Of a stretch of 64,000 nucleotides of DNA, positions 47,986 to 52,187 are shown one piece after another. The notes below the pieces were generated by a model, which worked only from the letters and a program-made list of their open reading frames with translations, did no database searches and was not told the origin of the DNA. Source of the DNA: an uncultured delta proteobacterium (GTDB lineage Bacteria; Desulfobacterota; RBG-13-43-22); contig CAWBOS010000012.1 in the NCBI GenBank assembly GCA_963790475.1, positions 1,440,001 to 1,504,000 of the forward strand, given 5' to 3'. The translations under genes and the position numbers were made by a program. Numbering within the stretch: position 1 is the stretch's first letter; every line of letters starts with the position of its first letter.

Positions 47986-48768
47986 TTATTCACCCCTGGA
48001 AACAGCAACCAGTACCAGGGTTTGATGGGTGAACAGGATCTTTCCTTCTTTGTTTCTTACGCGCAGGCCTGTTCTATCCTGTTTCAACGCCTCTTCGAAC
48101 CTCCGACGGATTTCCGCCTCTATTTCCGGTGCTGGTCCGCCGTGAAGGATCCAGCCATCCAAGTCATAGTGTACCCGCCCGGCAAGCTCGTTTGCTATTT
48201 CCAATCTGTTGGCACGGAATAGTTCCCGGAACTCGGTCGCCTTGAGGGCTCTCACATGGGTGGGATCGCAAAGGCGTTCGATTTCATTGTGCACGCCGGC
48301 CTCTAATCGATCCTCGGAGGTCACGATATCGGCGGTCAGTATTTTCCCGCCAGGCTTTACGACCCGGTACATTTCCGCCAGCACCCGACCAGGTTCCGGA
48401 AAATGGTGGAATGCGGCCCGGCAAGCGACGATATCGAAGGTCGCCGGGGCAAAGGGAAGGGCGGTAGCCGCGCCTTTCTCGAAACGGACATTGTCCATCC
48501 CTCGTCTTCCCGCCTCAGCCCTGGCCATCGACAGCATGGCATCCGTGGCGTCCAGACCCACGGCGGTGGCGCATCGTCGGGCAAAGGCCATCGTCAGAAA
48601 TCCCGGGCCGCAGGCGACGTCCAAAACGCGTCCCTCCGGTTCCGGCCGACACATTTCGACCATCATGGTATGGGAGGCCTCGTCTCTGGCCTGAGCTGTA
48701 GCGGCATAAGCGTCGGCTTGCCGGGTGAACTGGGTACGGATGTCATCGATGTTGTCTTTGCTCATCAT
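47986..48768 (-). CDS. Class I SAM-dependent methyltransferase
   Basis: VLDVACGPG, LPFAPATFD, AFHHFPEP, RVVKPGG. Confidence 0.92.
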   Translation of the reverse strand: MMSKDNIDDIRTQFTRQADAYAATAQARDEASHTMMVEMCRPEPEGRVLDVACGPGFLTMAFARRCATAVGLDATDAMLSMARAEAGRRGMDNVRFEKGAATALPFAPATFDIVACRAAFHHFPEPGRVLAEMYRVVKPGGKILTADIVTSEDRLEAGVHNEIERLCDPTHVRALKATEFRELFRANRLEIANELAGRVHYDLDGWILHGGPAPEIEAEIRRRFEEALKQDRTGLRVRNKEGKILFTHQTLVLVAVSRGE

Positions 48769-48867
48769 TAACCTCTATGATACTTTCTAACCCGGACAAG
48801 CCGGAACCATATTTGAAATATTGTAACATTTGGTGGATTCGTAAAAAGTCACCGAAAGCCTATTTTC

Positions 48868-48920
48868 GTCATTCCCTTGAAAAAGGGAATCCAGTGTTTT
48901 TAATAAGTTGAGAATAGCCT
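48868..48920 (+). repeat. Left part of a REP-like element interrupted by IS110
   Basis: GTCATTCCCTTGAAAAAGGGAATCCAG..AGCCT; continues at 50453. Confidence 0.8.
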
Positions 48921-49021
48921 AGACATAATGGCTGACAATTAAAAAAGCGACCTGCCCCTTATCGTCGTGGGTTATATTAGGGAGTGATCCCAATACAGAG
49001 CCAAGAATAAGGAGGCAGGTC

Positions 49022-50134
49022 ATGAAACATTTTATCACAGTTGTCGGTATGGATGTACACAAAGATTCCATAGAGATTGTAATCGCCGAAACCACGGGAA
49101 CTGAAGAAGTTCGGCATTACGGAAAAATTAACGGCGACATGGCCTCATTGGACAAAGCAGTCAGAAAACTCAAAAGCACCAGTAGGGAACTGCACTTTGT
49201 CTATGAAGCTGGGCCATGCGGCTATGAGATTTACCGTCACCTATCCTCGCAGGGGTTTACTTGTGTGGTCGTTGCCCCCTCGAAGACTCCCAGACGGAGC
49301 GGCGACCGAGTCAAGAACGACCATCGCGATGCCCAGACACTGGCCCGGCTTTATCGGGCCGGGGAGTTAACCCCGGTCTATGTCCCTCGACCGGACGACG
49401 AAGCCATGAGAGATTTGACCCGCGCCCGGGAAGATGCGGTCAAGGCCTTGCGCACTGCTCGTCAACACTTAGGGGCTTTTCTGCTTCGGTATGGCCATAG
49501 GTACCCCGGTAAAACATCCTGGACGCCTGCTCATAGGCGTTGGCTATCGGACGTCACCATGCCCCACCCCGCCCAGCAGATTACCCTTCAGGAATATATC
49601 CACACGGTAAACGAGGGCACCCTGCGAGTCGGTCGTTTAGTTGACCAGAGTCTGAAGCTGTTGCCCCAATGGAGCCTGGCCCCAGTGGTTGAAGCCCTCC
49701 AGGCCCTCAGAGGGGTGGCTCCTACTGTGGCTATAACCACCGTCTCTGAGATCGGCGATATCACTCGTTTTGAGAACCCCCGGCAGTTCATGGCCTATCT
49801 GGGTCTGGTTCCCTCGGAACACTCCAGCGGCCAGTCCGTCAAACGGGGCAGCATCACCAAAACCGGCAATGGCCACGTAAGGCGCGTTCTCGTTGAAGCG
49901 GCGCATGCTTATAGCTATCCGGCCCGGATAAGCAGGTTTCTGCTCAAACGACAACAGGGACTGCCGCAGCCCATCCGGGAGATCGCCTGGAAGGCCCAGG
50001 TTAGACTCTGCGGCCGGTTCCGTAGGCTTATGGCCCAAGGAAAAATGAAAACCAAAGTGGTAACCGCCATCGCCCGCGAGCTCTCCGGCTTCATATGGGC
50101 GATTGCCAGGGAAGTTCAGTTGCGAAACGTGTAG
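49022..50134 (+). CDS. IS110-family DEDD recombinase/transposase
   Basis: VGMDVHKD, YEAGPCG, KNDHRDA, YLGLVPSEHSSG, ITKTGN, AIAREL; AAGGAGG RBS. Confidence 0.95.
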   Translation: MKHFITVVGMDVHKDSIEIVIAETTGTEEVRHYGKINGDMASLDKAVRKLKSTSRELHFVYEAGPCGYEIYRHLSSQGFTCVVVAPSKTPRRSGDRVKNDHRDAQTLARLYRAGELTPVYVPRPDDEAMRDLTRAREDAVKALRTARQHLGAFLLRYGHRYPGKTSWTPAHRRWLSDVTMPHPAQQITLQEYIHTVNEGTLRVGRLVDQSLKLLPQWSLAPVVEALQALRGVAPTVAITTVSEIGDITRFENPRQFMAYLGLVPSEHSSGQSVKRGSITKTGNGHVRRVLVEAAHAYSYPARISRFLLKRQQGLPQPIREIAWKAQVRLCGRFRRLMAQGKMKTKVVTAIARELSGFIWAIAREVQLRNV

Positions 50135-50190
50135 CCTAGGTCAAAAAACAAACCTTCTTAAAGGAGTATAGAGACCACCCATTATATCCT

Positions 50191-50383
50191 ATCCAGGGGA
50201 CCAGCAGAGACGCGACCCCGTTGGGAGAATCCTCGAGGAATCCAAGGAATAAGGTCATCCGAATTTCCGATCCTAGAGCGAGGCAGCTCCTGTGACGAAG
50301 TCAAGTCAGGCGTTCAAAATACGCGAATATCAGAATGATCAAACGTCGCTAAATCGGTCCCGTCTCTGCTTGTGCCCTGGATT
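50191..50383 (+). ncRNA. Putative bridge/seek RNA of the intact IS1111-group element
   Basis: Closing stem ATCCAGGGGACCAGCAGAGACGCGACC / GGTCCCGTCTCTGCTTGTGCCCTGGAT; contains GGAATCCA (target match) and ATATCAGA (circle-junction match). Confidence 0.65.
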
Positions 50384-50452
50384 AAACTGACAGTCTAACC
50401 CTCTACTAGGGCCAGGAAAAATCTTTTCCTCTTGACAACTGTCAGCCATATC

Positions 50453-50477
50453 GGATTCCCGCCTCCGCGGGAATGAC
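50453..50477 (+). repeat. Right part of the REP-like element
   Basis: GGATTCCCGCCTCCGCGGGAATGAC. Confidence 0.8.
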
Positions 50478-50594
50478 GACGAAATATTCTATCCAATTTG
50501 AGTAGAATTCTATTCCTAAGTTACTAAGACTTTATTGGTTTCTAAATCTGGGGAAATCATACTTGTTTGATTTCCCCCCAGGCCTTGTCTGATC

Positions 50595-52187
50595 CTAATT
50601 TTTCAGCAGTTCCGCGATTTCAACTTTAAGGGCAAGTTTGTCGACCTTTCCGTTGGCCAGCAAGGGCAGCAGCGGCCGGATGATGAATTTCTTGGGGACC
50701 TTGTAGTTGGCCAGCCGGGACTTACAATATTCGCTCAGTTCCTCTTCCGTGACCTCCTTGCCCGGAAGGGTCATGGCAAAGGCCCATCCGACTTCCTGGT
50801 AGATCTCATCAGGGACACCGATGACCGCGGCAAACAGGATGCCGCCCTGGGCTTCAAGGATTTCCTCTATTTCCCGCGGATAAACGTTTTCACCCCCGGT
50901 CTTGAACATTTCCGACTTGCGGCCGCTGATGGTGATATAACCCCGATCATCCTTAGAGGCCAGATCGGAAGTGTAATACCATCCCTGGCTATCGAGGACT
51001 TCGGCGGTTGCATCCGGCTTATTGAGATATTCCTTGAACATGAAGGCGCCCCGAACGGCTATCTCACCCACCTGGCCGTTGGGGATTTCACGGCGTTTTT
51101 CATCAACGATCTTCAGTTCAAAAGGCGGGGCGATCTTGCCTGCGGTTTTCATCCGCGTTTCCAAATCGTCCCCCTTTTCCGTATAGGTAACGAAACCGCA
51201 GACCTCGGTAGAACCATAACCGGTCACCAGCATGGTACCGGTCTGATTGGAGATGCCTGACAGGACATCCAGCATAATCCTGGGGGCCGCCGCGCCGGCC
51301 CAGGCGATGAGCTTCAGAGAGCTGAAGTCGGTCTGGAAGAATTCGGGCTGCCTCATCTGTAGGAGGAACATAACGGGAACCTGTCCGAACAGGGTGATCC
51401 GCTCTTTTTCGATCATCTTCAGAGAAGCCAGCGGGTCAAACTGGTCCATGAAAACGATGCACCCGCCAGCCAGGACGGCGGCAAAGCCGATTTCGACGTC
51501 CGCCGCCACATGATTGATGGGGAAGTGGAGGAGGACCCTCATATATTGGTCGGCATAGAACTTCTTGGCCTCAACCTTGATGTTCTCCACGATACTGCGA
51601 TGGGTGTGGACCACCCCCTTGGGCTTGCCCGTGGAGCCGGAGGTGTACATCAGAAGGGCCCGGTCATTTTCTCGGACCCCGGCGGCCCGTTGCGACAGCG
51701 CCGAGTCAAGCTCGGGGCGGGGCTGTTCCGTAAATTCGATGAAAGATTCGGTCCCTTCAACAGGCTCGCCTATGACCAGGACCTTTTTAACGAAGGTAAA
51801 TTCATCCCTCAGCGCCCGGATCGTCGCGGCTATATCGTTTCCCAGAAAGGTGCGCACAACGATCAGCACCACCGGCCGGGAGTCCATGATCTGGTAACGA
51901 AGTTCATCCAGGGTGAATTTAGGATTGAGCCCCAGCCACACGGCACCGATCTTGCCCGCGGCCATGTACGTTGTCAGGAATTCGTTACAGGCCGCAGCGA
52001 GCATCGCCACCCGGTCGCCAGGCTGCACGCCTGCGGCCAAGTAAGCTCGGGCGATCCCGTCCATCCGCGTCTTGAAATCACCCCAGGTGAGACGCTCCTC
52101 GCCAAAGACAAGGGCCTCGGCCCTGGGTTTTTCGGCGGCCCATTTTTCCACGTAATGCCATGTCAATTTCAGATGGCTCCAGTCCAT
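50595..52187 (-). CDS. Long-chain acyl-CoA ligase (AMP-binding)
   Basis: YTSGSTGKPKG, GYGSTE, GRKSEMFKTGGENVYP, YKVPK, NGKVDK. Confidence 0.93.
   Translation of the reverse strand: MDWSHLKLTWHYVEKWAAEKPRAEALVFGEERLTWGDFKTRMDGIARAYLAAGVQPGDRVAMLAAACNEFLTTYMAAGKIGAVWLGLNPKFTLDELRYQIMDSRPVVLIVVRTFLGNDIAATIRALRDEFTFVKKVLVIGEPVEGTESFIEFTEQPRPELDSALSQRAAGVRENDRALLMYTSGSTGKPKGVVHTHRSIVENIKVEAKKFYADQYMRVLLHFPINHVAADVEIGFAAVLAGGCIVFMDQFDPLASLKMIEKERITLFGQVPVMFLLQMRQPEFFQTDFSSLKLIAWAGAAAPRIMLDVLSGISNQTGTMLVTGYGSTEVCGFVTYTEKGDDLETRMKTAGKIAPPFELKIVDEKRREIPNGQVGEIAVRGAFMFKEYLNKPDATAEVLDSQGWYYTSDLASKDDRGYITISGRKSEMFKTGGENVYPREIEEILEAQGGILFAAVIGVPDEIYQEVGWAFAMTLPGKEVTEEELSEYCKSRLANYKVPKKFIIRPLLPLLANGKVDKLALKVEIAELLKN

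Follow-up and report, generated by a model that had tools for sequence, protein, structure and literature searches.

This analysis indicates that positions 48921-50452 of the window, the whole stretch of 64,000 nucleotides (nt) studied here on contig CAWBOS010000012.1 of an uncultured delta proteobacterium (assembly GCA_963790475.1), constitute on the + strand an intact insertion sequence (IS) of the IS1111 group, 1532 bp long, which very probably moved recently and whose recombinase is very probably guided by an RNA made from the 318-nt region behind its gene. The initial annotation had proposed an RNA-guided recombinase naturally programmed against a high-copy genomic repeat, here a repetitive extragenic palindrome (REP), and this proposal is supported both by the covariation of guides with the flanks of homologous elements and by the structure of the RNA. 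Recent activity is suggested by the host genome, which carries three copies in the same orientation, one identical to that of the window (copy 1) and one differing by two substitutions, both within the gene, together with seven empty paralogues of the insertion site. The novelty first attributed to the system was overestimated, since 3' bridge/seek RNAs and REP-targeting members of the IS1111 group are already described (PMC11187229, PMC11208160), and parts of the present map may overlap with RNA structures and guide assignments already in print (Durrant Fig. 6d, Extended Data Fig. 10c and Supplementary Table 5; Siddiquee supplementary figures). With this element, the natural bridge/seek RNA systems gain a further member, whose target repeat provides over 140 candidate sites in the host; for one IS1111 lineage, its homologs yield a secondary structure backed by covariation and a map of four guides.

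The ends of the element were set to the exact base by the seven uninterrupted paralogous sites. These repeat units of at least 200 bp run ...atagcct|GGATTCCC... unbroken across the insertion point (marked by the bar), with identities to copy 1 of 135-141/150 nt on the left and 73-82/100 nt on the right, and no base is duplicated or ambiguous at either end, in line with the absence of target-site duplication reported initially. AG or CT on the element's own strand, considered as a duplicated core, was thus ruled out, no base being repeated at the ends. The left end opens with a 7-nt terminal extension, AGACATA (48921-48927), whose first two bases AG form the donor core, followed by the left sub-terminal inverted repeat ATGGCTGACA (48928-48937). 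On the right, the repeat TGTCAGCCAT (50440-50449) is followed by the 3-nt extension ATC, the two together spanning 50440-50452. The sub-terminal repeats first placed 7 and 3 nt from the ends were indeed found there, both in the sequence and by comparison with the empty sites, and this asymmetry is described as a hallmark of IS1111 elements (PMC11187229). The repeat is perfect over 10 bp, one base under the usual range of 11-13 bp (PMC11187229). Also as in the IS1111 group, the longer non-coding DNA lies downstream of the gene (318 nt, against 101 nt upstream).

The recombinase gene (49022-50134, + strand, 370 residues) is preceded by AGGAGG at 8 nt. Its product matches the two IS110-family recombinase domains of Pfam (PF01548, 72 bits; PF02371, 83 bits) and the NCBIfam model NF033542, "IS110 family RNA-guided transposase", at 266.9 bits for a cut-off of 140. 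When it was aligned with nine homologs (10 sequences), D11, E62, D100, D103 and G270 were invariant and S269 nearly so, and the motif G261-L-x-P264-xxxx-S269-G270 was conserved. The protein thus combines a DEDD RuvC-like N-terminal domain with a C-terminal PF02371 domain bearing the GL-P----S(T)G motif, as is characteristic of the IS1111 group.

The insertion site is the edge of a REP. In all three genome copies, the left flank ends in CT (48919-48920 in the window), conserved at all insertions of the clade, and the right flank reads GGATTCC(C/G)GC-N4-GC(C/G)GGAATGAC. In the window, this target REP (50453-50477, + strand) consists of GG, the target core, then ATTCCCGC-CTCC-GCGGGAAT-GAC, and the second REP of the doublet, inverted and unoccupied, lies at 48868-48894 on the - strand. 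The empty site ...ATAGCCT| predicted initially is therefore real, as the seven paralogues attest; it was said to lie inside a REP arm, and it is found instead at the 5' edge of the REP, CT|GGATTCC, 2 nt ahead of the palindromic stem. The genome has 172 REP-like hairpins opened by GGATTCC; CT precedes 141 of these (ACT 75, CCT 53, TCT 10), and CTGGATTCC was counted 305 times where base composition predicts 47. Insertion at CT|GGATTCC, always in one orientation, was seen three times here, twice in G017 and four times in metagenome contigs; such site- and orientation-specific insertion, with no target duplication, is typical of the IS1111 group.

The first indication of guides came from two 8-mers in the 3' region, GGAATCCA at 50237-50244 and ATATCAGA at 50327-50334, whose positions are as initially given. 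Taken alone, they prove little. When the non-coding region was shuffled 5000 times, 9.5% of the shuffles contained an 8-mer matching the 24-nt site, 11.2% one matching the 24-nt junction, and 0.9% both, which bears out the caution then voiced about such short matches. Homologous relatives were therefore collected from the same order (eight places), from 401 genomes of the phylum (21 places, in 16 of them), from species-representative genomes (the best 80 of 584 confirmed relatives) and from metagenomes (25 loci). The comparison of homologs and of guide covariation recommended at the outset was thus carried out on about 100 homologous loci, and it revealed a target guide that changes with the target and a donor motif that changes with the terminus.

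Covariation was found for target guide 1, AGGAAUCCA (50236-50244), complementary to the top strand T|GG-ATTCC and including the 8-mer GGAAUCCA (50237-50244). The nine bases that follow an invariant CCUCG are the reverse complement of each homolog's own right flank plus the last base of its left flank; CCGCCGCUA thus pairs with T|AGCGGC in one homolog, and AGCCUCCUA with T|AGGAGGCU in another. This was quantified on 51 elements with both ends and guides anchored, reduced to 42 by identical guide pair, mis-registered rows being kept. Guide 1 matched the right flank at 5.52 of 8 positions, against 3.03 +/- 0.19 when permuted and a maximum of 3.76 in 2000 permutations, and at 3.98 of 6 when the core was excluded (1.71 permuted). 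The core complement itself tracks the target core, with CU for AG, UU for AA and CC for GG. GGAAUCCA is thus not an invariant motif, since it changes to the complement of each homolog's right flank.

A partner guide, which the initial annotation could not clearly identify, exists for the target. Target guide 2 (50271-50277, + strand) reads UCCU-AG-A, in the sense of the left flank, the donor core and the first left-end base, and the bases ahead of its invariant AGA (UCCU, 50271-50274) repeat the end of the left flank at 3.0 of 5 positions, against 1.83 +/- 0.12 in permutations (maximum 2.45). The top-strand match (50236-50244) precedes the bottom-strand match (50271-50277) and overlaps it in the target, which is the order described for published IS1111 seekRNAs (PMC11187229). 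Guide 1 would correspond to the seekRNA "T match" and to the left target guide (LTG) of IS621, and guide 2 to the "B match" and to the right target guide (RTG) of IS621 with core and handshake base. It was also considered whether guide 2 lies behind a preference for CCT over the commoner ACT sites; this found weak support, the elements with guide 2 read as UCCU occupying CCT four times, TCT once and ACT once (the guide of L108 was not extracted).

These guides are located in the loops of a well-supported fold. The 3' region alone folds better than its shuffles (-103.6 kcal/mol, z = -4.4), and the consensus of 55 homologous segments, out of 68 extracted, comprises 41 pairs in seven helices, 27 of the 41 pairs showing compensatory changes. 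Pairing held in 93.0% of consensus cells, against 40-46% with partners slid by 1-3 columns, the covariation score reached 0.465, against about 0.11 in controls, and none of 500 shuffles attained any of five measures. The segments left out were either mis-anchored (L054, L065, L068, L080, L083, L097) or dropped by hand as near-duplicate, decayed or very distant (L011, L026, L071, L074, L081, L089, L103). The putative bridge/seek RNA core (50193-50380) is closed by stem P1 (50193-50216 with 50357-50380); a closing stem was correctly predicted at the outset, and its length, then put at about 27 bp, amounts to 24 pairs in the single-sequence fold and 19 in the consensus, all 19 with compensatory changes. 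Within it, a predicted target-binding arm (50224-50290; stems 50224-27/50287-90 and 50231-34/50280-83, an internal loop and a cap hairpin at 50246-68) is followed by a predicted donor-binding arm (50292-50349; stem 50292-97/50344-49, an internal loop and a cap hairpin at 50310-24). Both 8-mers fall in internal loops of the consensus, GGAAUCCA in that of the target arm, and not in paired stems.

These data leave hardly any probability to the view that the 3' region is merely a structured 3' untranslated region or an IS terminator, with 8-mers matching by chance. The frequency of single matches in shuffles and the lack of any Rfam family matching the region would agree with such a view, but the covariation of guides and flanks lies far outside the permutations, the guides occupy loops of a covarying structure, and a scan of the element detected no terminator-like site. 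The Rfam search gave two sub-threshold matches, both on REP hairpins: the Francisella small RNA FtrB (E = 0.57; 50377-50495, - strand), whose alignment rests mainly on the REP hairpin GUCAUUCCCGCG..CGCGGGAAUC, and tracrRNA (E = 0.75; 48831-48903, + strand), over the left REP. Another candidate for a second target guide, CCUGGAUU (50376-50383), identical to the target top strand, was rejected because it is the 3' strand of P1, because CCAGG/CCUGG is kept in homologs with other targets, and because AUU is not kept in L006 and L007, which share the target. The stem sequence at 50375-50382 / 50191-50198 is likewise kept in homologs with other targets, and its resemblance was hence read as coincidence.

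Recognition of the element's own ends by the same RNA is suggested by the donor arm. The 3' side of its loop carries AUAUC-AG-A (50327-50334, + strand), in the sense of the right-end terminus, the core and one further base, so that AUAUCAGA reads as the joined ends, ATATC|AGA. AUAUCAG was present in all 30 alignment rows with terminus CATATC, whereas terminus CATGAG was accompanied by CAUGAGAG or UAUGAGAG (L053, L087, L093, L106), CATACC by AUACCAGA (L080) and CATAGA by CAUAGAAG (L026): the motif is constant only where the terminus is constant, with four sequence states in all. Moreover, of the non-redundant cases, 27 have A behind the core, as in the left end, and in 18 of the remaining 25 this base equals the first one of the right flank, a pattern reminiscent of handshake pairing in IS621. 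AAGUCAG (50303-50309, + strand), on the 5' side of the loop, is the probable partner donor guide, complementary to the junction top strand C-AG-ACAT at 5/7 positions; among homologs, a G/A change in it tracks a C/T change at position 4 of the left end, and left ends starting AGACC come with GGUC. CCAUUAU (about 50179), complementary to the left end, was also tried as a donor guide and rejected, its conservation being restricted to the closest relatives.

Several observations weigh against guidance by all four guides as set out above. Several guide 1 rows score low (1-3/8); all were kept in the count, and the average is lowered by these mis-registered, mis-anchored and mis-detected rows, since L027, L053, L084, L086 and L101 have a shifted guide register, L079 a mis-detected right end, and L068, L080 and L083 a CCUCG anchor placed on a second copy of the motif; L026 and L093 also belong to the low-scoring rows. 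Guide 2 is short, and in the clade that targets GGATTCC its variable bases agree with the site in part only, with UCCU at CACT in L109 and CACU at ACCT in L110. As regards the donor, nine of ten rows with terminus CAT[G/A]AG carry [C/U]AUCAGAG, with one mismatch, covariation consists of few, phylogenetically clustered states, and the 5' guide matches only 5/7 positions in this element. Finally, donor and target cores differ (AG and GG), which IS621 rules do not favour. From the donor observations one may conceive that only target choice is guided by RNA, the protein recognising the ends through the sub-terminal repeats and AUAUCAGA being kept as a protein-binding or structural motif, with no donor loop. 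In line with this, the donor motif is nearly invariant across most homologs, one large group mismatches its own terminus by one base, the 5' donor guide is weak, and Siddiquee et al. (PMC11187229) mapped target matches only, noting that end recognition in IS1111 elements may differ owing to the repeats. Nevertheless, four right-end termini are paired with four matching versions of the motif, the handshake-like match to the first right-flank base is hard to explain by a protein motif, and Durrant et al. (PMC11208160) report donor-complementary loops in IS1111 members. We therefore consider target-only guidance improbable, and regard covariation of the 3'-side donor guide as good, not overwhelming, evidence that the RNA also reads the ends.

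The core mismatch deserves attention, since its outcome is fixed. In most homologs, AG opens both the left end and the right flank and is thus a shared core. In the clade of the present element, the target reads GG, to which guide 1 is complementary through CC in the RNA, while AG is found in guide 2 and in the donor guide; the target core is GG for a donor core AG, and no base is shared at the ends, in contrast with IS621, whose donor and target share CT (the target equivalent here being CC). All 17 junction-readable insertions at non-AG target cores keep AG on the left and the target's own dinucleotide on the right; they comprise 9 GG, 7 AA and 1 AT, with 13 in a first set (5 GG, 7 AA, 1 AT) and 4 GG in a second one (L108, L109, L110, L112), and are not all independent, as related strains may in some cases have contributed one locus several times. 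Next to the cut, IS621 has T in nearly all cases (PMC11208158); in the IS621 frame, a GG target puts C there, while the AA and AT cases keep T. Target duplication is not treated as characteristic of either family (PMC11187229). By analogy, the AG-left, target-right configuration would arise if the strand cleaved 3' of the core in IS621 were the only one exchanged, whereas random resolution of a 2-nt heteroduplex should give both configurations; under the same one-strand rule, excision would leave the site with GG again and the circle with AG. It is conceivable, though we hold it only tentatively, that IS1111-group insertions are fixed from single-strand transfer followed by replication, with a non-T base tolerated at the cleavage-adjacent core position, and a 2025 preprint proposes such transfer and replication for one IS110 element (10.1101/2025.10.25.684509). 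An unstaggered cut or biased repair are other explanations of the fixed configuration. The term "mismatched core" was not found by a search of PMC11208160, and we do not claim the pattern as unpublished. It bears on one-strand versus two-strand exchange in integration, and on the freedom of the core when such systems are reprogrammed.

From a mechanistic point of view, we infer the production and binding of the RNA and the formation of a circle, with the chemistry taken from IS621. The DEDD/serine recombinase would be guided by the RNA core (about 50193-50380), with its long closing stem and two arms. On the 5' side of the target loop, GGAAUCCA would pair with the REP top strand T|GGATTCC, and on its 3' side UCCU-AG-A would pair with the bottom strand of the left flank ..CCT, on into the donor-type core and the first left-end base. 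In the donor loop, the 3' side, AUAUC-AG-A, would recognise the bottom strand where the ends are joined, ..ATATC|AGA, and the 5' side, AAGUCAG, probably the top strand at C-AG-AC. The complex would then insert the circle between CT and GGATTCC in a single orientation. Excision, by joining the ends, would create a promoter driving both the recombinase gene and the RNA. The abutted ends indeed read TTGACA, an 18-nt spacer and CATAAT, as the initial annotation had it and as in the IS1111 group, although this remains a reading of the sequence. The predicted -35 half (TTGACA, 50432-50437, + strand) keeps TTGAC in the right end of most homologs, and the predicted -10 half (CATAAT, 48924-48929, + strand) is kept in left ends as CATAAT or TATTAT. 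A linear promoter scan detected only a weak site, TTAATA-18-CATAAT, formed by the flank and the left end at copy 1.

The closest known system by description is ISPa11, and the closest by mechanism IS621. ISPa11, an IS1111 element of Pseudomonas aeruginosa, shares the sub-terminal repeats, the downstream non-coding region and a REP target, and its 96-nt seekRNA co-purifies with the transposase and has its top-strand match 5' of the bottom-strand match (PMC11187229, PMC13604230); it uses another REP and another site (GG*CG in the published table; PMC13604230), and the likeness is one of description. The recombinase studied here has 370 residues, against 330-350 quoted as the IS1111-family norm. 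Right-end bridge RNAs have been predicted for 93% of IS1111 elements (PMC11208160). ISEc11 and ISXne4, also of the IS1111 group, were naturally retargeted by swapping the two target matches with stems conserved (PMC11187229), and the homologs collected here display the same pattern, target matches changing while stems stay; those elements have short linear targets, not a repeat family.

IS621, an IS110-group element of Escherichia coli, resembles the present one by its REP target and, as proposed here, by its junction promoter and its two loops with guides to both strands and handshake bases. In IS621, the bottom strand is bound by the LTG and the left donor guide (LDG), the top strand by the RTG and the right donor guide (RDG); cleavage of the top strand falls 3' of the CT core, and once exchange has taken place the incoming core and two handshake bases are paired with the RTG and RDG (PMC11208158). 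On the opposite strand, where donor core AG becomes CT, our element appears to take the IS621 layout: GGAAUCCA would be the LTG, UCCU-AG-A the RTG with core and handshake base, AAGUCAG the LDG, and AUAUC-AG-A the RDG with core and handshake base. The two left guides would thereby occupy the 5' sides of the loops and face the bottom strand, and the two right guides the 3' sides, facing the top strand. On this mapping, the "reversed order" of IS1111 seekRNAs may reflect gene and RNA reversed relative to the crossover site, and not a different logic. Differences are nonetheless clear, since IS621 encodes its RNA upstream of the gene, within the left end, has no long sub-terminal repeats, and places its loops in separate stem-loops, while both are here under one long closing stem. 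The two recombinases are only weakly similar (E = 7e-8 over 70 residues), and among solved structures only IS110-group ones matched our protein, weakly. ISPpu9 and ISPpu10 of Pseudomonas putida also target REPs, and an AG dinucleotide is the point of recombination at each end; both are IS110-group elements, do not have sub-terminal repeats, keep AG at both junctions and produce extra small RNAs, Asr9 and Ssr9 (PMC12288879).

Some individual loci depart from the general pattern. L029 has CG, not AG, at its left junction, and its left end is probably rearranged, because its left flank mismatches its own guide 2. In L011 (G017), a decayed copy, an in-frame TGA and a degenerate left end were found, L006 (G004) is truncated and has no left end, and in L123 the right terminus is duplicated, a second AACCATATCA standing behind it. 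L113, L115, L116, L118, L120, L128 and L129, on seven metagenome contigs from different records, have identical flanks and therefore represent one insertion event, not seven.

Within the right end of the element, CTGACAG (50389-50395), an internal copy of the repeat arm, can pair in the single-sequence fold with the right repeat CTGTCAG (50439-50445), enclosing two small hairpins (about 50399-50431) and the -35 box; in this model, the pairing could mark the 3' end of the RNA or mask the right end. Copy 1 breaks one unit, at least 200 bp long, of two inverted REPs (about 48770-48920 plus 50453-50550 of the window), and the seven uninterrupted units are located on G000 C10 (four places), C11, C12:1548433 and C13. 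It sits between two minus-strand open reading frames, 153 bp upstream of the start of one of 260 residues (47986-48768) and 142 bp downstream of the stop of one of 530 residues (50595-52187), and may separate the downstream gene from upstream transcription.

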